A stretch of DNA of 64,000 bases from Candidatus Woesearchaeota archaeon. GTDB taxonomy: Archaea > Nanobdellota > Nanobdellia > SCGC-AAA011-G17 > GW2011-AR20. The translations under genes and the position numbers were made by a program. Positions 4,490-38,938 of this stretch are shown here, piece by piece (position 1 is the stretch's first letter; each line of letters begins with the position of its first letter). Under the pieces are notes generated by a model. The model did no database searches. It had not been told where the DNA came from and saw only the letters and a program-made list of their open reading frames with translations. The stretch is taken from NCBI GenBank assembly GCA_018303005.1, contig JAGVYY010000031.1, positions 24,994 to 88,993 on the forward strand, written 5' to 3'.

Positions 4490-6199
4490 ATGCAGGTCTT
4501 CAAAAATGAAGTAATCAATCTAGTAGAACAGATTACAGGATTAAAAAAAGAAAAAATAATTGTTTTGTTAGAACATCCTTCAGACCCATCTTTCGGAGAT
4601 CTTTCTCTCCCGTGCTTCTCTTTAACAACCATATATAAAAAAAATCCGGCCGATATCGCCAAAAGTCTAATGTCAGATGCAATTGTTTTAAAAAAATCAA
4701 CAATAAGAAGGATAGATGCAAAAGGGCCATATCTGAACTTTTTCATAAACTACAACGAGTTTGCACAATTAATTCTTAAAACAATATTAAGAGAGAAACA
4801 GCATTATGGAAGATTAAAAGGCAAGGAAGAAAAGATTATGATAGAGTACAGTTCCCCAAACACAAATAAGCCATTACACATAGGTCATTTAAGAAATGAC
4901 TCTTTAGGTATGTCGCTCTCAAACATATTGGGGTTCTCTAATCGTAAAGTGATAAGAACAGCAGTGATAAATGACAGGGGCGTCCATATCTGTAAATCAA
5001 TGTTAGCTTATAAAAAATGGGGGAATAACAAAACTCCTCAATCAACAAACACAAAATCAGATCATTTTGTAGGCTCTTTTTATGTGTTGTTTGAACAAAA
5101 ATTAAAAGAAAATCCAAATCTAGAGAGAGAAATCCACGATATGCTAAATAAATGGGAAAATAATGATAGGGGAACAAGAGAATTATGGAAGAAAATGAAC
5201 ACCTGGGTCTTGGCAGGTATGAAAAAGACATACGCTCTTTATGGGTCAAAATTTGATTTTTGGACATTCGAAAGCAACATATATGATAAAGCAAAAGAAA
5301 TAGTGAATGAAGGAATCAAAAAAAATATCTTTTCAAAAAATGAGAAAGGTGATTATATTGTTGATTTAGAACCAGAACTTCCTAATAAAGTCGTCCTAAG
5401 ATCTGATGGAACTTCAGTATATATTACACAAGATATAGCATTGGCCGAATTAAGGTTCAAAAAATACAAGATAAAAAGGTTAATCTATGTAGTGGCATCA
5501 GAACAGGTTTTACATTTTAAACAACTCTTCAGAATTTTAAGTTTGCTCGGATATGACTACTGCAAAGATTGTTACCATCTGTCTTATGGGCTTGTTAATT
5601 TACCAACGGGAAGAATGAAGACAAGAGAAGGAACAGTGGTTGATGCAGATGATCTGATAGAACAAGAGATTGAATTAGCCAAGAAAGAGATATTACAACG
5701 GAACAAAAATATAAAAAAGAAGGAGTTAGAGGAAAACTCATTGAAGATTGCCCTCTCAGCAATAAAATATTATCTCCTTAAAACAGATCCCATAAAAGAC
5801 ATATTGTTCGATTCAGAAAAAGCAATAAGATTTGAAGGCGATACAGGACCGTACGTATTATACACAATCGCCAGATGTAATAGTTTACTTGAAAAAACAA
5901 AAGAAAGCAAAGAAAGGTTCTTATCAATAGAAATTAATGATGAAGAAAGTCAGATAATAAAAAAATTGTCATTATTTCAGGATATTTTAGAGAAGGCAAC
6001 TACAGATTTAAAACCAAGTTATATTTGTGTTTATACATCAGAGTTAGCAACATTATTCAATAATTTTTATGAAAAACATAGGGTCATCGATATAGAAAAC
6101 AACACAAAAGGGTTCAGGATTGCAATTGTCAAGTCAACAAAACAAGTGTTGGAGATTTGCTTACACCTTCTTAACATCCAGTCAGTGAAACATATGTGA
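4490..6199 (+). CDS. argS: Arginyl-tRNA synthetase
   Basis: The class I HIGH motif is present (SSPNTNKPLHIGHLRN). The protein ends in Met, as ArgRS typically does. 569 aa. Confidence 0.9.
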   Translation: MQVFKNEVINLVEQITGLKKEKIIVLLEHPSDPSFGDLSLPCFSLTTIYKKNPADIAKSLMSDAIVLKKSTIRRIDAKGPYLNFFINYNEFAQLILKTILREKQHYGRLKGKEEKIMIEYSSPNTNKPLHIGHLRNDSLGMSLSNILGFSNRKVIRTAVINDRGVHICKSMLAYKKWGNNKTPQSTNTKSDHFVGSFYVLFEQKLKENPNLEREIHDMLNKWENNDRGTRELWKKMNTWVLAGMKKTYALYGSKFDFWTFESNIYDKAKEIVNEGIKKNIFSKNEKGDYIVDLEPELPNKVVLRSDGTSVYITQDIALAELRFKKYKIKRLIYVVASEQVLHFKQLFRILSLLGYDYCKDCYHLSYGLVNLPTGRMKTREGTVVDADDLIEQEIELAKKEILQRNKNIKKKELEENSLKIALSAIKYYLLKTDPIKDILFDSEKAIRFEGDTGPYVLYTIARCNSLLEKTKESKERFLSIEINDEESQIIKKLSLFQDILEKATTDLKPSYICVYTSELATLFNNFYEKHRVIDIENNTKGFRIAIVKSTKQVLEICLHLLNIQSVKHM

Positions 6200-6385: not shown

Positions 6386-6820
6386 ATGCAAGTAATAGGT
6401 TTTAACATAGAAAAGATAGAAGCAGAAAAGACAGTCCAGGAAGTCAGAGATTTAAAGGTAAAATACAATACAAACATAAAATCTGTAACCTTGGAAGAGA
6501 TGAATATAGGAAAAAAACAAGAGGTTTTAAGGGTTAATTTTCAATTTAAAGTTGAATATGACCCAAACATAGGGAATATTTCTTTTACAGGCCATGTACT
6601 AATCTTAGAAGATCCTAAAAAAGCAAAAGTAATAATAGAGCAATGGAATAAAAATCAGGACAATACCACCCCATTTTCTGTTCAGGTAATTAATATAATT
6701 CTTATAAGGGCGAATATAAAAGCATTGCTAATAGCACAGGAAGTTAATCTACCTCCCCACATACCAATGCCGCGGTTGGCACCAAACAAGAATATTAGGC
6801 CAGATAACTACATTGGTTGA
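6386..6820 (+). CDS. Hypothetical protein
   Basis: 144 aa ORF preceded by the promoter motif. No recognisable domain. Confidence 0.4.
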   Translation: MQVIGFNIEKIEAEKTVQEVRDLKVKYNTNIKSVTLEEMNIGKKQEVLRVNFQFKVEYDPNIGNISFTGHVLILEDPKKAKVIIEQWNKNQDNTTPFSVQVINIILIRANIKALLIAQEVNLPPHIPMPRLAPNKNIRPDNYIG

Positions 6821-8739: not shown

Positions 8740-8895
8740 ATTTTTTATAAAAACAAGCTCTTAGGTTGTTAGGTCTTTGTAGAAATTATCAACATTAAAA
8801 GGTACACACATCTGATATTAAAACTTTTAAGCATTGACAAAAGATTATCTAAACATAGAAAGATTTAAATATATTACATTTATTACATTTAAACT

Positions 8896-9147
8896 ATGGA
8901 AGAAGTTACGATTTCATTAAGGGTAGATAAAGAAGTACATAAAAAAATGAAATTACATGATGAAATAAACTGGAGCGCCTTATTAAGGAAATCAATAATA
9001 AAAACAATTGAGGATTTTGACTTTATTGATAAAGAAAGAGCAGAAAAAGCAGCTTTAAGTATGGATAAATTGAGGAAAGTAAATGCATTTTCTTCTGGAA
9101 AAGAAAGTGTTCAGGTCATTAGAGAATGGAGAAACAGACGAAAATAA
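8896..9147 (+). CDS. vapB: VapB-like antitoxin
   Basis: 83 aa. It overlaps the downstream PIN gene by a few nucleotides. A paralog is at 13327-13551. Confidence 0.55.
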   Translation: MEEVTISLRVDKEVHKKMKLHDEINWSALLRKSIIKTIEDFDFIDKERAEKAALSMDKLRKVNAFSSGKESVQVIREWRNRRK

Positions 9148-9524
9148 TAGATGCATCAATAGTTGTAAAATGGTTTGTTGATGAAGAGAATAGTAAAAAG
9201 GCTTTAGATATAAGAAACGACCATATTAATGGGAACATAAAAATTATAGTACCAGATCTTACCTTCATAGAAGTGTTAAATGCTCTTAAATATAAAGGAA
9301 AAACAGAAGAAGATTTAAAAGAAGCAAATAAGGATTTATGGGACATTCAATTACAGATAATAAAAACAACTTCTTTCACTTTAAACAAAGCAATAGAAAT
9401 AGCATTAAAACATGACATAACACTATACGATGCGCTATACATATCATTAAGCACAATATATGGTTGTCCTTTAATAACAGCAGATAAAAAATTAGCAGAT
9501 CTCCCAAATGTTCAGCTTATCTAA
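9126..9524 (+). CDS. vapC: PIN-domain VapC toxin
   Basis: KIIDASIVVKWFVDEE...ITADKKL carries the PIN acidic residues. It is translationally coupled to the upstream antitoxin. Confidence 0.8.
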   Translation: MEKQTKIIDASIVVKWFVDEENSKKALDIRNDHINGNIKIIVPDLTFIEVLNALKYKGKTEEDLKEANKDLWDIQLQIIKTTSFTLNKAIEIALKHDITLYDALYISLSTIYGCPLITADKKLADLPNVQLI

Positions 9525-9531
9525 GTGATAA

Positions 9532-9615
9532 TTAAAACTTTTAAGCAAAGATAAAATACTAAACTTCTACAATAAAAACTATAAAGTAGTAACAAAGCGA
9601 AAGGTTTATAAATAA
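9532..9615 (+). repeat. About 84-bp direct repeat, copy 1 (TTAAAACTTTTAAGCAAAGATAAAATACTAAACTTCTACAATAAAAACTATAAAGTAGTAACAAAgCGAAAGGTTTATAA)
   Basis: It matches 11106-11188 almost exactly, with 1 mismatch. It contains the palindrome TTAAAAcTTTTAA and a BRE/TATA-like end. Confidence 0.85.
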
Positions 9616-10576: not shown

Positions 10577-10780
10577 ATGCAAATAGAAGTAGCAAAAGAC
10601 ATCTCGGAAAATCTTGAAAGGGCTTCTAAAGAGCTAGGGCTAAATAAAAAAGAGTTAATAACAAGGGCAATAAAATTATACCTTCACAACATAAAAGAAT
10701 ATATAATCTTGAAAGAAGAACTTGAAGCTTGGGAAAGAGCTGGAACAGAGGATCTATTAGCCTTTGAAAATAAGATATGA
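10577..10780 (+). CDS. Ribbon-helix-helix (CopG/MazE-like) antitoxin
   Basis: 67 aa with ELITRAIKLYL. It overlaps the downstream toxin gene by 4 nt (ATGA). Confidence 0.5.
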   Translation: MQIEVAKDISENLERASKELGLNKKELITRAIKLYLHNIKEYIILKEELEAWERAGTEDLLAFENKI

Positions 10781-11103
10781 AAAAAGGTGAATTATGGGTT
10801 CTAGAACTTCCATTTCTAAATGGAAGAGAACAGAGAGGCACTCGACCGTGTTTAATCCTAGCAGATACGAAAACAGACATGATTGTTGTAATTCCATTAA
10901 CCTCAAATCTTCAAGCTTTAAGATTCCCACATACTGTAGAAATAAAAAAATCTGGAGAAAATAAGCTTGAAAAAGATTCAATAGCACTAATTTTTCAAAT
11001 TCAATCGTTAGATAAAAAGAGATTTATAAATAAAATCGGAGTTTTAGAAGATTATTATTTAAGCAAGGTAGATGAAGTACTAAAAAGATTAATTCAGTTA
11101 TAA
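10777..11103 (+). CDS. mazF: MazF/PemK-family toxin (endoribonuclease)
   Basis: GELWVLELPFLNGREQRGTRPCLILAD...VIPLTS is the PemK/MazF signature. Confidence 0.7.
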   Translation: MKKGELWVLELPFLNGREQRGTRPCLILADTKTDMIVVIPLTSNLQALRFPHTVEIKKSGENKLEKDSIALIFQIQSLDKKRFINKIGVLEDYYLSKVDEVLKRLIQL

Positions 11104-11105
11104 TC

Positions 11106-11188
11106 TTAAAACTTTTAAGCAAAGATAAAATACTAAACTTCTACAATAAAAACTATAAAGTAGTAACAAATCGAAAGGTTTATAAGAG
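11106..11188 (+). repeat. About 84-bp direct repeat, copy 2, immediately upstream of the gene at 11208
   Basis: See copy 1 at 9532-9615. Confidence 0.85.
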
Positions 11189-12082: not shown

Positions 12083-12113
12083 AAGTAGGCTTAATCCATA
12101 TTAAGCCTACTTT
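12083..12113. terminator. Perfect 13-bp stem (AAGTAGGCTTAAT / ATTAAGCCTACTT) with a 4-nt loop, followed by TTTTAAATTT, between convergent genes
   Basis: Read from the sequence. It sits between the 3' ends of the ORFs at 11208-11957(+) and 12130-12660(-). Confidence 0.5.
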
Positions 12114-12129
12114 TAAATTTAAGATATCC

Positions 12130-12660
12130 TTATTTAATTAATAAATCCATATCTTGTAGCTCTTTGTAAACTATCATTATAAACTCGTTCGTTATTCTTA
12201 CTAAATCTTTTTTAGAATAACCCACATTCATAGGTATTCGTTTCAGCTCCTCAGTATTCTTTGTACGATATAGTAACATGATATTGTATCTTCCATCTCT
12301 CCAATCTCTTATCTTACTATCTTCCAATAAATATATTTCAAATCGATAGATTCTCCCATAATAACCTATATTCCCTCCATATTTTAGATGACCAATCTTC
12401 CCCGAAAATTCAAACTTTCCATTTCTAGGCAGACTTTTATTTAGATTTTTTATAATATCTCCCGTCATCTCTTTTATATCTTTATCTAATTTACTTGCAA
12501 ATGTTAACTTTCCAACAAGGCTAAGTTGCTCCTTCCTCTCTCTATCCCAATGATTTTTTTCTGACCAATAAATTTCATCATCTCCCATCTTTTTAAATTT
12601 CTCCCAAAACCATTTACCTCTAAAACTTAAATTCTCTTTATATATATATCTTTCTATCAA
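12130..12660 (-). CDS. Hypothetical protein
   Basis: 176 aa. The listed start is an alternative start codon, so the true start is uncertain. Confidence 0.4.
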   Translation of the reverse strand: MIERYIYKENLSFRGKWFWEKFKKMGDDEIYWSEKNHWDRERKEQLSLVGKLTFASKLDKDIKEMTGDIIKNLNKSLPRNGKFEFSGKIGHLKYGGNIGYYGRIYRFEIYLLEDSKIRDWRDGRYNIMLLYRTKNTEELKRIPMNVGYSKKDLVRITNEFIMIVYKELQDMDLLIK

Positions 12661-12672
12661 ATTCTACTTAAT
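12649..12672 (+). repeat. Core repeat copy C (TCTTTCTATCAAATTCTACTTAAT)
   Basis: It matches the repeats at 13240-13264 and 14785-14803. It is related to ACTAAACTTCTACAATAAAA inside the 84-bp repeats. Confidence 0.7.
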
Positions 12673-12892
12673 TAACAATAACCTCTACAGGCAGTTCATT
12701 AGGTTTTATCTTACTAGAAATAAAGTTTAATTTTTCAAAACCTATAACTTTATTTGTTTTTGGATCTTTTTTTAATATAACTTCCTCTCCAGTTTCCTCA
12801 CTAATAATCTTTCTAGGCTTTTCAAACCATACATCTAATGTATTTCCTTCTCTATCAAAAAATACCATGATTTTATTCATTTTTATTTTCAT
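12668..12892 (-). CDS. DUF2283-family small protein (putative antitoxin partner)
   Basis: MKIKMNKIMVFFDREGNTLDVWFEKP...EEVILKKDPKTNKVIGFEKLNF matches the DUF2283 pattern. Confidence 0.55.
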   Translation of the reverse strand: MKIKMNKIMVFFDREGNTLDVWFEKPRKIISEETGEEVILKKDPKTNKVIGFEKLNFISSKIKPNELPVEVIVN

Positions 12893-13193
12893 AAATCAGT
12901 TCTCCTTCTTTAATCCTATCTGTATGATACGTAGTTATAATAAAACTATCATTATTTATATGCTTTGCTACAACTGAAACCCATAATTTTCCATATTTTT
13001 TATAATAAAGATAAACTGAACTATCCTTCTCACTCACCCTTATTTCATCAGGATTCATTAATGTTTCTTTAACCTCTTTCTCTTTATTCTCAATATCCGG
13101 ATGTTTTGTTCTTATTATAAGATTCCATCTATATCTTGTGACTTGAATTCTTTTACCAAATTTAGATATTACTTCAAAATAAACTTCATCCAT
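12873..13193 (-). CDS. DUF4258-family protein (putative toxin partner of DUF2283)
   Basis: 106 aa, overlapping the downstream DUF2283 gene. The motif pattern H..DI......V...L.NPD......S..YLYY...VVAKH.NND.FIITT.H is the expected one. Confidence 0.5.
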   Translation of the reverse strand: MDEVYFEVISKFGKRIQVTRYRWNLIIRTKHPDIENKEKEVKETLMNPDEIRVSEKDSSVYLYYKKYGKLWVSVVAKHINNDSFIITTYHTDRIKEGELIYENKNE

Positions 13194-13239
13194 AAATAAT
13201 TAAATAATTCATTCTATATAAGTTTTATTAGTATTATTA

Positions 13240-13264
13240 TCTTACTATCAAAATTCTACTTAAT
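13240..13264 (+). repeat. Core repeat copy D (TCTTACTATCAAAATTCTACTTAAT)
   Basis: Together with copy C it brackets the DUF4258/DUF2283 pair exactly. Confidence 0.7.
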
Positions 13265-13326
13265 ATCACTTAAAGCACCAAAACCCAAATCGGACTTTTA
13301 AATATGTGAAATCACATATCAATGAA

Positions 13327-13551
13327 ATGCCAAATTTAACATTATCAATAACAGAAGAGTTACATGAAAAGATGAAAAGACATTCTGAGATTAGATGGGG
13401 TGATATAGTTAGAAAATCTATTTCTGAGAAAATTGAAGATTTGGAGATTATGGATAGGCTTGCTAAAAAAAGCAAATTGACACAAGCAGATATTGGGGAA
13501 ATATCTCATAAAGTAAACAGAGATATTTTTGAAGAATTAAACAAAAGATGA
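13327..13551 (+). CDS. vapB: VapB-like antitoxin (paralog of 8896-9147)
   Basis: MPNLTLSITEELHEKMKRHSEIRW...RKSI.EKIEDLE is similar to the first VapB. Confidence 0.5.
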   Translation: MPNLTLSITEELHEKMKRHSEIRWGDIVRKSISEKIEDLEIMDRLAKKSKLTQADIGEISHKVNRDIFEELNKR

Positions 13552-13918
13552 AAGTTATACTTGATGTAAATATTATCTTGTCAGCTTTGATTCGCGATTC
13601 AACAACAAGAAAGATAATTCTTAATTCTGGGTTGATTTATACTCTCCAGAGCCATCCATGCACAAAATCAGAAAGTACGAGGATTATATTCTAAGAAAAT
13701 CCGGATTGACAGCAGAAGAATATAACAAACTCATGACAACCTTGCTCAAATATGTTAGATTAGTTCCTACTGAAGAAATAGAAAGGAATTGGAATGAAGC
13801 AAAGGAAATAATGGAGCATATAGATAAAGAAGATGTTGTTTTTATAGCAACTGCATTAGGCATCAAAAATTCAGTAGTATGGTCAGATGATAGGCATTTG
13901 AAAGGCAGAATAAGATAA
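13548..13918 (+). pseudogene. vapC: PIN-domain vapC disrupted by a frameshift. The N-terminal part (MKVILDVNIILSALI...) is in one frame, and the C-terminal part (13658-13918; DVVFIATALGIKNSVVWSDDRHL) is in another
   Basis: The two reading frames overlap over 13624-13700. The PIN N- and C-terminal motifs are split between them. Confidence 0.5.
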
Positions 13919-14784: not shown

Positions 14785-14803
14785 ATCAAAAATTCTACTT
14801 AAT
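14785..14803 (+). repeat. Core repeat copy E (ATCAAAAATTCTACTTAAT), 4 nt upstream of the recombinase ATG
   Basis: Read from the sequence. Confidence 0.7.
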
Positions 14804-14806
14804 CTA

Positions 14807-15643
14807 ATGGAAAAAGAGTTGATATTAGAAAAATTAAGAACAGAACTAACAATACAGGGAAAATCGCAAAAAACAATAGACGCTTATCTATTACATACAC
14901 AAAAATTTCTTGAATTTATAAAGAAAGATTCTTCTAAACTGCAAAAACAAGATATAAAGAATTATTTAGCAGACTTAATGTCAAAAAACTTAAAACCAAA
15001 ATCAATAAACTTAAAACTGTCTACAATACGTTTCCTAAACAGATATATATTAAAAAACCCAAAGTTAATGGAAGATATCAAATCACAAAAAACAGCAGAG
15101 AAGATACCAACCTACCTGACAACTGAAGAAATTCAAAAGTTGCTAGCAACCATTAAAAATTCTAAGCATAAGCTTATGATAGAGATAATGTTAACATCTG
15201 GATTAAGAGTATCGGAGTGTATCAATCTAAAACAACAAGATATTAACGACGACAATACCATAACTGTAAGAGCAGGCAAAGGGAATAAAGACAGGATTAC
15301 AATAATTCCAAGTTCAGTATTACAACATCTGAAGAAGCATATAGAAGAGAGAAAACATGATTCAGATTATGTTTTGTGCAAAAAAAACGGTAATAAACTC
15401 AGTGTAAAATTACCCCAGAAAATCATAAAACAATTAGCAATTAAATCAGGAATCAAGAAGAACATAACACCTCATGTTTTAAGACATTCATTCGCAACCC
15501 ATCTCTTGCATAATGGCACAGATATTCGTTATATTCAAATATTGCTGGGGCATGCACAGATTCAGACAACTCAGATTTATACACACATCTCAAAAGAGCA
15601 GATTAAGCAGATCAAGAATCCCTTCAATGATATGATAAAATAA
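14807..15643 (+). CDS. xerA: Tyrosine site-specific recombinase (XerA/XerC/XerD-like integrase)
   Basis: The C-terminal catalytic region is HVLRHSFATHLLHNGTDIRYIQILLGHAQIQTTQIYTHI (R..H.R...Y). The N-terminal core-binding domain is present. About 279 aa. Confidence 0.8.
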   Translation: MEKELILEKLRTELTIQGKSQKTIDAYLLHTQKFLEFIKKDSSKLQKQDIKNYLADLMSKNLKPKSINLKLSTIRFLNRYILKNPKLMEDIKSQKTAEKIPTYLTTEEIQKLLATIKNSKHKLMIEIMLTSGLRVSECINLKQQDINDDNTITVRAGKGNKDRITIIPSSVLQHLKKHIEERKHDSDYVLCKKNGNKLSVKLPQKIIKQLAIKSGIKKNITPHVLRHSFATHLLHNGTDIRYIQILLGHAQIQTTQIYTHISKEQIKQIKNPFNDMIK

Positions 15644-19478: not shown

Positions 19479-20003
19479 ATGAAAATATTGGCTGCTTCAG
19501 ACATACATGGAGATATCAATTTACAGTCAACTGCAGGCATAATAGGGCCGTTTGTAAAAAGAAATAAGAAAGTTCTCTTGATACCTGGAAATCATGAAAC
19601 TCCTGCAACAGCAGATTTCTTAGCAGAGTTGTATGGTGCTGTTAATCTACATGGCTACTCTTATAAAATGAAAGATATTGGTTTGTTCGGCTGCGGTTCA
19701 GCAAATATAGGACACTTTCAACTGTCAGAGGCTGAAATTTTTGACTTGCTTAAAAAAAGTTATAAATATATAAAAGATTCAAAGAAGAAGATAATGGTAA
19801 CACATGTCCATCCGAAAGGTTCAAGCATGGAAAGACTTACGAACTTTTTTCCAGGAAGTTCAGGTGTTACAAAAGCAATAAGAGAGCTTAAACCCGATCT
19901 TCTTTTATGCGGTCATGTGCATGAAGCAGAAGGTATAGAAGAGAAAATTGATAATACATTAGTAATAAACGTTGGCAGGAACGGAAAAATAATAGAGATC
20001 TAA
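19479..20003 (+). CDS. Calcineurin-like metallophosphoesterase
   Basis: SDIHGD...GNHE...GHVH motifs. Confidence 0.7.
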   Translation: MKILAASDIHGDINLQSTAGIIGPFVKRNKKVLLIPGNHETPATADFLAELYGAVNLHGYSYKMKDIGLFGCGSANIGHFQLSEAEIFDLLKKSYKYIKDSKKKIMVTHVHPKGSSMERLTNFFPGSSGVTKAIRELKPDLLLCGHVHEAEGIEEKIDNTLVINVGRNGKIIEI

Positions 20004-20005
20004 CA

Positions 20006-22042
20006 ATGACATATGAATTAATAATAGCAGAGAAAACAGATGCTGCTAAAAGGATTGCAGAAGCTTTGGCAGATATTAAAGCAGAGAAGAAAGTTACAAA
20101 TAAAATTCCATATTTTGAATTATCCCATGATGGAAAAAAGATTGTTGTTGCATCTGCAGTCGGTCACTTATTTGTCTTGGCAGAAAATAAAAAAACACAA
20201 GATTATCCAAATTTTGATATTTCTTGGCAGCCTAGTTATAAAGTCTTCAAAAAAAGTTATTTTACAAAAAATTATCTTGATCTATTAACGCAGTTATCAA
20301 AAAATGCTTCCTCTTATGTAATTGCATGCGATTATGATACAGAAGGCGAAGTAATCGGTAGAAATGTCTTAAAATTCATTTGTGAGAAATCTAATGCAAA
20401 AAGAATGAAATTCTCAACATTAACAAAAGAAGAGTTGTTTGACTCTTATAAAAATGCTTCAAAATCAATAGATTTAAAATTAGTTGAGGCAGGAGAAGCA
20501 AGACATTATCTGGATAACTATTGGGGTTTGAACTCCAGTAAAGCATTAACTTTAGCAATTAAAAATTCCGGTATGTTTAAGCTTCTATCTTCAGGCAGGG
20601 TACAAAGCCCAATCCTTACATTAATAGCGCATAAGGAAGAACAGATTGAATCTTTTATTCCAAAGCAATACTGGCAGTTATTGGCAAAAATCAACATAAA
20701 AGATCAGCTAATTGAAGCATTACACCAGGAGGATAAATTTTGGGATAAAAAACAGGCGAGTTTGATATATAAAAAATGTAAAGATAAAGATGCAACTGTA
20801 AAAGAGATAAAGAAAAGAGAGTACAATACAAACCCACCAACACCTTTTAATATTACCTCATTGCAAACAGAATCTTATAAGAATTTTGGATTTTCTCCTA
20901 AACAGACTCTGGATATTGCTGAAAGGCTCTATTTAAGCGCTCATATCAGTTATCCAAGAACTTCGTCAGAAAAATTGCCTCAAACAATAGACTATAAAAA
21001 AATAATAAAAAGCCTGTCTTCTATTAAGGATTTAAACAAAAATGCCGTGCTCTTATTACAGAAACAACATTTAAAACCAAATGAAGGAACAAAAACAGAT
21101 CCGGCACATATCGCAGTTTACCCAACAGCAAATATTCCCAATATAATAAAGCTAAATGAACAAGAAAAAAAGATATATATGTTGATTGCAAAAAGATTTT
21201 TGGCAGTGTTTGCAGATCCAGCATTAAGAGAATCCATGGAGATAAAATTTGATATCAACAATGAAATATTTAAGGCATCAGGTTCAAGGACAATAAATCC
21301 GGGATGGATGTCATTTTATGCACCGTATGTAAAATTTAAAGAAGTTCAACTACCAGAAACAAAAGAAAATGAAAAACATACTGTTAAAGACCTGATATTG
21401 AAAGAGGATAAAACAAAACCTCCTGCACGTTACACCCAAGGTTCTATAATCTCCGAAATGGATGAAAAAAATCTTGGAACAAGGGCAACAAGGGCCCAAA
21501 TATTGCAGATATTATACGATAGATACTACATTGAAGATAAAAGTATAAAAATAACAGAGATTGGAAAATCAGTTATCAAAGTTTTAGAGAAATATGTCCC
21601 GGAGTTAGTTTCAGAAGATCTGACAAGGCAATTTGAACTTGAATTAGAGCAGATACAGGAATCAAGAACAACAGAAGAAGAAGTTATTGAAAAAGCAAAA
21701 CAACTATTAACAAAAATATTTGTCAATTTCAAAAAACATGAAAAAAATATAGGAAAGCATTTAGTTGAAGCATTAAAAGAGACACAAGACAAAGCATCTA
21801 TCTTGGGAAAATGCCCTGTATGTATGGAAGGAGATCTAAGGATATTGTTCTCAAGAAAAACAAAAAAGAAGTTTGTTGCGTGTAATAAATATCCGGAATG
21901 CAAAACAACTTACAGTTTAACTTCAGGAAAGGTAATACCCACAGGCGAGACATGCCAATATTGTAAAACACCACTAATAAAGGTGCAAAGAACAGGAAAA
22001 AGGCCGTTTAAGAATCAAAGAAGAAAAATGAGACATGATTAA
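20006..22042 (+). CDS. topA: DNA topoisomerase, type IA, with C-terminal zinc ribbons
   Basis: Toprim N-terminus (IIAEK..AAKRIAEAL). 678 aa. C-terminal C4 motifs (CPVC...CNKYPEC; CQYC). Confidence 0.85.
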   Translation: MTYELIIAEKTDAAKRIAEALADIKAEKKVTNKIPYFELSHDGKKIVVASAVGHLFVLAENKKTQDYPNFDISWQPSYKVFKKSYFTKNYLDLLTQLSKNASSYVIACDYDTEGEVIGRNVLKFICEKSNAKRMKFSTLTKEELFDSYKNASKSIDLKLVEAGEARHYLDNYWGLNSSKALTLAIKNSGMFKLLSSGRVQSPILTLIAHKEEQIESFIPKQYWQLLAKINIKDQLIEALHQEDKFWDKKQASLIYKKCKDKDATVKEIKKREYNTNPPTPFNITSLQTESYKNFGFSPKQTLDIAERLYLSAHISYPRTSSEKLPQTIDYKKIIKSLSSIKDLNKNAVLLLQKQHLKPNEGTKTDPAHIAVYPTANIPNIIKLNEQEKKIYMLIAKRFLAVFADPALRESMEIKFDINNEIFKASGSRTINPGWMSFYAPYVKFKEVQLPETKENEKHTVKDLILKEDKTKPPARYTQGSIISEMDEKNLGTRATRAQILQILYDRYYIEDKSIKITEIGKSVIKVLEKYVPELVSEDLTRQFELELEQIQESRTTEEEVIEKAKQLLTKIFVNFKKHEKNIGKHLVEALKETQDKASILGKCPVCMEGDLRILFSRKTKKKFVACNKYPECKTTYSLTSGKVIPTGETCQYCKTPLIKVQRTGKRPFKNQRRKMRHD

Positions 22043-27398: not shown

Positions 27399-27572
27399 TC
27401 TTAAAAGATAATCTTAAATATACTCTTTCATTTCTATTTTTACCTAGGCTTAGTCTAGGCCACAGGCTTACCCATAGTGCTATTTAAAATAGCCATGAAA
27501 TACAACTGATTATCTTTTGATAGAGAGATAATAAAAAGCAGTGAATGATATAAGAGTGGGCAAGCTATATCT

Positions 27573-27646
27573 GGTGTCCATAGGTTGGTTCATAGTAGGA
27601 ACTTGAATCTGAATGCTAGGTATGAGAATCTTGTTAACTCGAAATT
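27573..27646 (+). repeat. DGR template region (TR), rich in AAC/AAT codons, flanked by an inverted repeat (CCTAGGCTTAGTCT at about 27446 and AGACTAAGCTAGG at about 27689)
   Basis: Read from the sequence. Coordinates may be off by 1 nt. Confidence 0.55.
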
Positions 27647-27710: not shown

Positions 27711-28757
27711 ATGAAAACTTACACCAGTCTTTACTTAAATTTATTTGATATAGATAGATTATATTTAGCTTATAAAAAAGCAAAAAAAGGTAAATCAAAT
27801 AAAGATTATGTTTAAAAATTTCAGAGAGATTTAATGAATAATCTATCTGCATTAAGGTTAGAACTATTCTTTCATTCCTATAAACCAAAACCATTAAAGA
27901 CTTTCATTATCAGGGACCCTAAAACAAGAAAAATCAGTAAATCTGATTTCAGGGACAGAATTGTGCATCATGCCTTAATCAATATTCTAGAACCAATATT
28001 CGATAAAGTTTTTATTTATGATAGTTATGCAAATAGGATTGGTAAAGGAACTACAAAAGCAATAGAAAGATTAAAATTATTTATTATAAAAGTTACTAAG
28101 AATAATAAAAGAAATACTTATTGCCTGAAACCAGATATTAAACATTATTTTGAAACTGTTAATCATGAAGTTTTATTGAATCTTATTAAAAGAAAGATAA
28201 GATAACAGAATAATATGGTTAATAAAAATAAATTTAGAAAACTATTATTTTAAAGAAAAAAATAAAGGTATGCCTCTAGGGAATTTAACCTCCCAATTTT
28301 TTGCTAACGTTTACTTAAATGAGCTTATCAATATATTAAACATAAATTAAAAGTTAAATATTATATAAGGTATGTGGATGATTTTGTTATATTACATGAA
28401 AATAAAAATAAATTAAATTTTTATAAGAATCAAATAAAGGAATTTTTAAAAAACAATCTAAAGATTGAGCTTCATAAAGATAAATCTAAAATATTTTTCA
28501 TAAGAAAAGGAATAACATTTTTAGGATTTAGGCATTTTTATTTTTATACCATATTAAATAAAAATAAAAGAAAACATGTCAATAATAAGATTAAAGATAT
28601 AATTAAAGAGAGTAAAGAAATGGAAGATTATAAAAAATTAATGCAAAGATTTGAATCTATTTTATCACATTTAGAAATTGGAAATACATATTATTTAAGA
28701 AACAATTTTATAGTTAAGTTAAACAATAATATTAATATGTTAAACATAAAGCAGTAG
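27711..28757 (+). pseudogene. DGR-type reverse transcriptase, degraded. Motifs 0-7 are all present but split over at least 4 segments by three in-frame TAA codons and at least two frameshifts
   Basis: Motif 0 is LYLAYKKAKKGK. Motifs 1-3 lie in the ORF at 27834-28205. Motif 4 is GMPLGNLTSQFFANVYLNEL (DGR hallmark). Motif 5 is YIRYVDDFVIL (ORF 28374-28757). Confidence 0.75.
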
Positions 28758-28834
28758 TAGTCTAGCGGCAGGACAGGAGCTTCCCAATAATAAGAAAAAA
28801 GCTTCTAACCCGGGTTCAAATCCCGGCTACTGCA
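28750..28834 (+). tRNA. tRNA-Gly (anticodon CCC) with a 13-nt intron at the canonical 37/38 position
   Basis: Acceptor GCAGTAG/CTACTGC. Anticodon arm GGAGC-TTCCCAA-GCTTC after removing TAATAAGAAAAAA. T-arm CCGGG-TTCAAAT-CCCGG. Confidence 0.7.
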
Positions 28835-32006: not shown

Positions 32007-32106
32007 TAGCCCCGCGAGGATTCGAACCTCGGTCTCATGGTTTCTCCTGAAATCCAGAGCCATGAATGCTAAGTCCCAAATGGTTTGACCGCTACACTAC
32101 GGGGCT
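32007..32106 (-). tRNA. tRNA-Gln (anticodon CUG) with two inferred introns: about 15 nt in the D-loop region (non-canonical) and 12 nt in the anticodon loop
   Basis: A1:U72 and an A73 discriminator are typical of archaeal tRNA-Gln. The anticodon stem CATGG/CCATG encloses 19 nt. D-stem GTGT/GCAT encloses 24 nt. The mature length after removing both would be 73 nt. Confidence 0.55.
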
Positions 32107-38746: not shown

Positions 38747-38938
38747 GTGGTAAACAAGTTGCCCGAAATAGAACTAATAGGTTCCGTTATTGAGGTAATA
38801 AAATCCAGAAATCCGGCATTAATCGGTATTAAAGGTAAGGTTATTGATGAGACAAAGAACATGATTGTAATAGAGGACAAAAACGAAAGAGTTAAAAAAT
38901 TAATTAGATCACAAGTGCAGATAAAGAAGATAAAATGA
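38747..38938 (+). CDS. rnp1: RNase P protein component Rpp29 (Rnp1)
   Basis: Conserved position between sui1 and rps17. Likely GTG start. Confidence 0.7.
   Translation: MVNKLPEIELIGSVIEVIKSRNPALIGIKGKVIDETKNMIVIEDKNERVKKLIRSQVQIKKIK

Follow-up and report, generated by a model that had tools for sequence, protein, structure and literature searches.

A DUF4258/DUF2283 toxin-antitoxin-like gene pair in a woesearchaeal island and the short direct repeat on either side of it

DUF4258, PBECR2 and PBECR3 are nuclease families that share the BECR (Barnase-EndoU-ColicinE5/D-RelE) fold. DUF4258 has been described as a toxin family of type II toxin-antitoxin systems with unknown target (PMC11980606) and was assigned to the colicin-like branch in a recent preprint (bioRxiv 10.64898/2026.08.28.747851). 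The partners recorded for DUF4258 are HicB-like or MqsA-like antitoxins (PMC4963859, PMC11980606). Small units of this kind are found in several types of arrays. Integron gene cassettes, including those of archaeal integrons (PMC9668308), are co-oriented small units, several of them toxin-antitoxin systems, with a repeated sequence in between. Xer-dependent modules, e.g. the pdif modules of Acinetobacter and IMEX at dif, are also small and often encode toxin-antitoxin systems; short sites mark their boundaries, and the host genome or replicon depends on Xer. Both pdif and dif are 28-bp sites with 11-6-11 dyad symmetry. Finally, neighbouring archaeal operons can share operator or promoter elements, i.e. 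conserved sequences of 15-25 nt directly upstream of the BRE/TATA-like boxes of co-oriented units. Here, we compare with these systems a two-gene unit of a Candidatus Woesearchaeota archaeon that is located between two copies of a short direct repeat.

The window, i.e. the whole stretch of 64 kb that was analysed, is AT-rich (about 30% G+C). At NCBI, a protein identical to the first product of the pair is recorded for Candidatus Woesearchaeota archaeon, a DPANN archaeon genome, and a near-identical locus is present in more than 20 groundwater metagenome contigs. The pair is part of an island at about 8.8-14.8 kb which is dense in toxin-antitoxin genes and at which the GC skew shows no switch. 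Other members are the VapBC unit RHH_12-PIN (8896-9524), RHH-PemK (10577-11103) and RHH_12 with a frameshifted PIN_2 (13306-13918). The island adjoins xerA (14807..15643, plus strand) encoding a tyrosine recombinase of 278 aa, which matches the model NF040815 (recomb_XerA_Arch) with 243 bits at a cut-off of 220. With the integron-integrase model TIGR02249 it reaches 199 bits, below the cut-off of 265; this match is in two pieces, and about 50 profile positions around the extra domain are absent. The gene unit after the pair is a 176-aa ORF (12130..12660, minus strand), for which neither a family match nor, by exact-protein look-up, any record was found. It is split into 107 and 83 aa in strains L006 and L008, its ATG equivalent to the start in a sister species is out of frame, and it is apparently in decay. 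A PADLOC search yielded zero matches.

The first gene of the pair (12873..13193, minus strand) encodes a 106-aa protein, the putative toxin. Its profile scores are below the cut-offs of both candidate Pfam families: 20.8 bits against 25 for PF14076 (DUF4258) and 21.0 bits against 27.1 for PF18810 (PBECR2). The identical NCBI entry is named 'DUF4258 domain-containing protein'. Among 21 homologues (48-77% identity), 17 match PBECR2 and 13 match DUF4258 at E < 0.01, the best PBECR2 match having 9.7e-6, and five match PBECR3. The AF2 model (pLDDT 89, pTM 0.82) comprises two helices and a beta sheet. A Foldseek search of this model against BFVD retrieved phage MuF C-terminal and polyvalent-protein domains (E 5e-5 to 7e-4, TM 0.66-0.79). 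Against the PDB, no solved structure was found at E < 1e-3; non-significant overlaps were obtained with CdiA-CT (7m5f_C, TM 0.56), HigB, ParE, RelE and YoeB, and by sequence the solved structures gave weak YoeB matches alone (E 0.23). H31, E38, E43, S54, Y61-K65, D92 and K95 are invariant; R52, H78 and R93 are nearly invariant. These residues fit an active enzyme. Homologues and predicted fold place the 106-aa protein in the BECR-fold superfamily, although it scores below both Pfam cut-offs. With the DUF4258/PBECR2 toxins of type II systems and the phage polyvalent/MuF proteins it shares the small alpha/beta nuclease-like fold, conserved His, Glu, Arg/Lys and Asp positions and a two-gene operon with a small partner. 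In contrast to them, it falls short of both curated thresholds, the toxin gene comes first, and the partner belongs to DUF2283 instead of being HicB-like or MqsA-like.

This partner, the putative antitoxin or neutraliser, has 74 aa (12668..12892, minus strand) and matches PF10049 (DUF2283) with 26.1 bits at a cut-off of 23; residues 10-56 cover profile positions 2-47 of 49. With few exceptions, the 236 homologues are PF10049 members or named 'YuzE'. Since these homologues begin at the ATG at 12880, this codon is the likely true start. The AF2 model (pLDDT 77) shows five beta strands, and no HTH, RHH, AbrB or otherwise recognisable DNA-binding domain was found in it. A DNA-binding domain is not universal among antitoxins. 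The sole notable structural match of the model is the N-terminal part of YtpR in an integrative model, and a sequence search among solved structures gave no match. A link between DUF2283 and FseA/QseM (PMC4755241) was considered and set aside, as that paper treats a different family.

The two minus-strand ORFs overlap by 20 nt as called or by 8 nt with the ATG at 12880. A DUF4258-like gene followed by an overlapping DUF2283 gene was found in all nine unrelated genomic contexts that were read (the window, L011/L012, L013-L016, L017, L018/L019, L147, L148, L150 and L163-L165). On a contig of a sister species, L161, the start of the DUF2283 gene is also visible; the contig ends inside this gene. 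The neighbours vary from context to context and comprise dCTP deaminase, an SMC gene, HEPN-MNT and a histidine kinase. A sigma-70 gene on L018 marks this contig as bacterial; the contexts come from at least one bacterium and from DPANN archaea. No relatives of the pair were found on IMG/VR viral contigs. Conserved with different neighbours each time, the pair is therefore a unit that has moved between genomes, as is common for toxin-antitoxin loci. As expected for type II, the genes are small, adjacent and co-directional, have overlapping frames and are kept as a pair, which supports the reading as a conserved and translationally coupled toxin-antitoxin-like unit. In this type II-like module, the 106-aa BECR-fold nuclease would most likely cleave RNA, and the all-beta DUF2283 protein, translated from the overlapping start, would most likely bind and neutralise it. 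The pair may serve in addiction or defence. A preliminary description of this DNA had proposed a recurrent toxin-antitoxin-like pairing of two overlapping minus-strand genes for a 106-aa DUF4258 and a 74-aa DUF2283 protein. Both ORFs are present as placed, the profile search bears out DUF2283, and the nine contexts agree with a recurrent pairing; the DUF4258 assignment is approximately right, with a BECR fold and scores below both Pfam cut-offs.

The repeat is located on both sides of the pair and is read here on the minus strand. The left copy, L (12649..12672; plus-strand form TCTTTCTATCAAATTCTACTTAAT, minus strand ATTAAGTAGAATTTGATAGAAAGA), and the right copy, R (13240..13264; plus-strand form TCTTACTATCAAAATTCTACTTAAT, minus strand ATTAAGTAGAATTTTGATAGTAAGA), are identical except for one mismatch and an indel of 1 nt. 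The motif core recurs as a third copy, X (14785..14803, minus strand, ATTAAGTAGAATTTTTGAT), inside the 83-nt divergent region between xerA (ATG 14807) and a 132-aa ORF (ATG 14723), 3 nt before the xerA ATG. The core common to L, R and X is ATTAAGTAGAATTT[T]0-2GAT. L covers the DUF2283 stop codon and extends into the final sense codon of that gene; at its other end it borders on the TATA-like run (12636-12648) that belongs to the 176-aa ORF. R spans the region 47-71 nt upstream of the DUF4258 ATG, and its end is thus 47 nt away from this codon. A weaker similarity between L and R (74%) extends for about 20 nt to 12628 and 13219, respectively, through the TATA-like stretch. All three copies precede the start codon of a minus-strand gene by 66-79 nt, namely that of the 132-aa ORF, of DUF4258 or of the 176-aa ORF, whose first in-frame ATG (about 12588) was used for this spacing. 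Each is followed by a BRE/TATA-like sequence at a distance that is not constant. About 25 nt upstream of the DUF4258 ATG, a proximal BRE/TATA-like box, AAAACTTATATAG (13214..13226, minus strand), can be read from the sequence, and L161, L011 and L013 have an equivalent box, AAAAAGTTTATATA. It is probably the pair's own promoter. The two repeat positions given in the preliminary description proved to be exact. Its statement that the pair is 'exactly bracketed' holds insofar as the pair is situated between the copies, and does not hold for the ends, where L reaches into the DUF2283 gene and R is separated from the DUF4258 ATG.

Could the repeat be a chance match in AT-rich intergenic DNA in which a generic archaeal BRE/TATA consensus is shared? 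The genome has about 30% G+C, and the GATAGAAAGATATATA half of the motif resembles a common ATAGAAAGATTTAAATAT promoter consensus elsewhere in the window (families D11 and D14). Against this, the best local alignment of the 400-nt flanks scored 20.5 compared with 10.6 +/- 1.3 (maximum 15) in 200 shuffles, i.e. 7.6 sd above them. The half outside the promoter-like part, ATTAAGTAGAATTT, is an exact 14-mer with three occurrences and no others in 64 kb, and the 11-mer TTCTACTTAAT has exactly three sites in the window, on the same strand and within 2.2 kb. Of direct-repeat clusters within 3 kb, about 6 would be expected and 26 were counted, among them the exact 14-mer shared by the flanks. In addition, the motif is conserved in a second species (see below). 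Shuffle score, 14-mer clusters and a five-way alignment effectively refute a chance origin, which we regard as extremely unlikely. A profile built from all junction copies did not detect further copies, even degenerate ones, in the other about 60 kb of the window. In database searches, the motif gave 90 single matches in genome_contigs, which came from unrelated organisms and did not include the source genome, and 37 in IMG/VR; both sets are noise. The one match in metagenome_contigs was a chance match on a bacterial contig.

The sister-species contig L161 bears on the assignment of the copies. Its toxin is 77% identical to the 106-aa protein of the window, and it carries two copies of the motif. 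The copy upstream of the pair (835-860) is of the right-hand type, and nucleotide homology between the two species starts exactly at its GTAGAA (L161 835 corresponds to window 13259). The other copy is part of a 65-nt match (L161 292-356) with 81% identity to the L region of the window (12618-12674) and is located upstream of an ORF of 147 aa that is distantly homologous to the 176-aa ORF (E 5e-7). The order is motif-pair-motif-176 aa in the window and motif-147 aa-motif-pair in L161. An alignment of all five copies revealed that GTAGAA..TTTGAT is invariant and that every copy is found upstream of a co-oriented start codon; the motif core is the best-conserved part of the intergenic regions. 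R type goes with the pair and L type with the 176/147-aa homologue. Therefore, the R copy is best read as the upstream region of the pair and the L copy as that of the next unit.

The explanation that we favour as a whole, with somewhat better than even confidence, is as follows. Both repeats would belong to a set of three copies of a head element specific to this lineage, TTRR-GTAGAATTT(T)(T)GAT, with BRE/TATA-like sequence behind it. In the island adjoining xerA, which is rich in toxin-antitoxin genes and varies between strains, the element would stand at the head of three consecutive minus-strand units: the group of the 132-aa gene, the DUF4258/DUF2283 pair and the 176-aa gene. The right copy would belong to the pair and the left copy to its neighbour, and the pair would appear bracketed because two units with the same head are adjacent. 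The head element is most likely a putative promoter-proximal binding site. Since the unit order differs between the sister species with breakpoints at the element, it is probably also a place where units were rearranged, and shuffling of units by recombination at the motif is possible. Like the shared operator or promoter elements of neighbouring archaeal operons, it is a short conserved sequence directly upstream of BRE/TATA-like boxes and is conserved across species with each unit. Unlike these, it has a variable internal spacing, its copies are confined to the island, and they coincide with rearrangement breakpoints. The variation by 0-2 T inside the motif does not sit easily with a rigid operator. 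A cis element close to the promoter that was also a point of past rearrangement appears most likely, and a dedicated cassette site is a minority possibility. The preliminary description had named duplication of a promoter region as its alternative, and shared sequence of the promoter region is close to the data.

A direct repeat around exactly one functional unit would also result if a single cassette had inserted upstream of the 176-aa gene and generated a target-site or Campbell-type duplication. A locus with this appearance exists: In the DPANN-like L017 (GCA_964373255.1), a homologous pair lies between direct repeats of 143 nt (5771-5913 and 6528-6670; 95% identity) which are unrelated to the motif. 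The 3' end of a coiled-coil ORF (61 aa) forms the upstream copy, suggesting that the repeat originated from the target, and a stop codon is retained at the equivalent position of both copies (TAA and TGA). For the locus in the window, such an insertion is very unlikely. There is a third copy 1.5 kb away, and in the sister species the R-type copy is found upstream of the pair although the neighbour is a different one; on these two grounds, the insertion was rejected. Moreover, neither a transposase ORF nor terminal inverted repeats nor an empty site were found, and in six other contexts of the pair no flanking repeats scored above shuffles. The empty-site pattern GTGATATTAAGTAGAATTT(N)GATAGWAAGATATATAT had 0 matches in metagenome_contigs and genome_contigs. 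Exact-protein look-ups yielded about 22 contigs with the toxin and 24 with the neighbouring RHH gene, and every contig that was informative had the pair. The 'signature of a mobile cassette' in the preliminary description is therefore to be divided: The pair does appear as a mobile conserved unit, whereas the third copy and the L161 arrangement do not support the repeats as the ends of one inserted cassette. Likewise, the same unit with the same repeat does recur insofar as the R type heads the pair in L161, and none of the more distant copies of the pair has the motif.

The neighbourhood of xerA suggests another reading, in which the motif is a site for site-specific recombination and the island an integron-like or Xer-exploiting cassette array. 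X, by xerA, would be the primary site, units would leave as circles and re-enter at other copies, and the deletion junction would read GTGATATTAAGTAGAATTTGATAGAAAGATATATAT. We consider this unlikely. Several features resemble such an array: From the xerA start codon on, three same-strand copies separate successive gene groups, the recombinase gene is directed away from them, and one copy abuts it, as in integrons. Interspecies homology breaks at the motif, and the order of the units is permuted. The DUF2283 ORF terminates in the motif, which contributes its final sense codon as well as its stop codon, and short partial duplications of its first 4-8 nt are found just upstream of three copies. 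The island is variable between strains, and toxin-antitoxin cassettes are typical integron cargo (PMC9668308). The recombinase, however, is an ordinary XerA and lacks the additional domain that archaeal integron integrases have (PMC9668308). The copies do not have an attC-like hairpin: When the 101 nt that end at each copy were folded as single-strand DNA, the z values were +0.38, -0.29 and -0.58. In contrast to integron cassettes, where the repeat follows the ORF, it is here at the promoter end of the unit, and all copies are at promoter-like positions. They do not resemble dif-type sites either. L and R lack dyad symmetry (3/11 and 4/11 matching arm positions, respectively). The arms of X match at 7/11 positions, and the 15/22 match of X to the arms of the Pyrococcus abyssi dif sequence used for comparison (PMC2958812) is background in this window. 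Finally, neither an empty site nor a presence/absence polymorphism was found. A more specific form of this reading is distinctly unlikely: TTRRGTAGAATTT(T)(T)GAT (about 18 nt) would be the recombination site of an integron-like DPANN cassette platform run by the ordinary XerA or another recombinase, with the primary site abutting the xerA start codon and excisable cassettes that carry both site and promoter. With Xer-dependent modules, the locus shares small, toxin-antitoxin-rich units and an xerA gene 1.5 kb away. The sole good 11-6-11 palindrome nearby is a different sequence and does not flank the pair.

This perfect palindrome, AGTAGGCTTAA-TATGGA-TTAAGCCTACT (12084..12111), is located between the convergent 176-aa and 249-aa ORFs. 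It is unique in the window, and its DNA fold has -13 kcal/mol (z -5.3). Strain L003 diverges inside the 6-nt spacer into entirely different downstream genes (PadR and others), and a 67-nt indel, an insertion in other strains, is directly beside the palindrome. At 2.7 kb from xerA, it looks like a recombination or dif-like site.

The island contains a second junction repeat on the plus strand. A partial copy (8815..8847) is upstream of vapB, a second copy (9529..9611) starts just after the VapC stop codon and a third (11103..11185) extends from the PemK stop codon to 23 nt before the 249-aa ORF. The second copy is 99% identical to 11106-11185 over 80 nt. The repeat opens with the palindrome TTAAAACTTTTAA, ends at a TATA-like box and brackets the VapBC unit as well as a unit composed of a 181-aa ORF and RHH-PemK. 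All of its copies begin at, or directly behind, the stop codon of the gene before them, and this layout, from stop codon to TATA box, is the same as that of the motif around the DUF4258/DUF2283 pair. Descent of the two families of the island from one ancestral repeat was considered, as an alignment hinted at shared stretches; single-sequence nhmmer gave no support, and the idea was dropped. Repeat-bracketed toxin-antitoxin units therefore recur, with differing, locally derived sequences. That the repeats around the units are local and different points to recombination in repeat-rich islands and not to a repeat intrinsic to the pair.

Thus, the observation stands and describes something fairly ordinary. 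The module is an unremarkable toxin-antitoxin-like pair of uncharacterised proteins and, within the explanation favoured above, the repeat would be a lineage-specific head element common to neighbouring units. The pair adds an archaeal example of a putative BECR-fold toxin partnered with DUF2283, and this pairing is widespread. Furthermore, the locus is a reminder that direct repeats flanking a toxin-antitoxin pair do not in themselves constitute an insertion footprint. If the head motif were indeed a recombination site, this would show how DPANN archaea with reduced genomes rearrange their toxin-antitoxin and defence units in the absence of a dedicated integron integrase.

Some further observations concern the surroundings of the pair. 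A palindrome, ATATGTGA-AA-TCACATAT (13303-13320), extends into the region where the RHH_12 gene starts and is a plausible candidate for an autoregulatory operator, distinct from the repeat motif. The PIN_2 toxin gene that follows RHH_12 (13548-13918) is frameshifted into 48 + 86 aa in all strains with this arrangement. In L009 (1-582), an identical RHH gene is followed by an NTP_transf_2 gene and a 77-aa ORF without a family on record. Because the switch occurs exactly at the RHH stop codon, the toxin has been exchanged. Compared with the window, strain contigs contain about 77 extra bases at 19523 and about 55 at 22010. Several tRNA genes of the window were detected by Rfam and missed by ARAGORN in bacterial mode; those at 28751-28834 and 32007-32106 are probably archaeal tRNAs with an intron. 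At 27443-27573, Rfam matched RT-16 RNA (RF03019) with 50.3 versus a gathering score of 50, barely above the threshold. The 14-mer ATAAAATGAAATCA is present at 38930, 39264 and 39667, at the starts of three successive genes (38935, 39269 and 39672).
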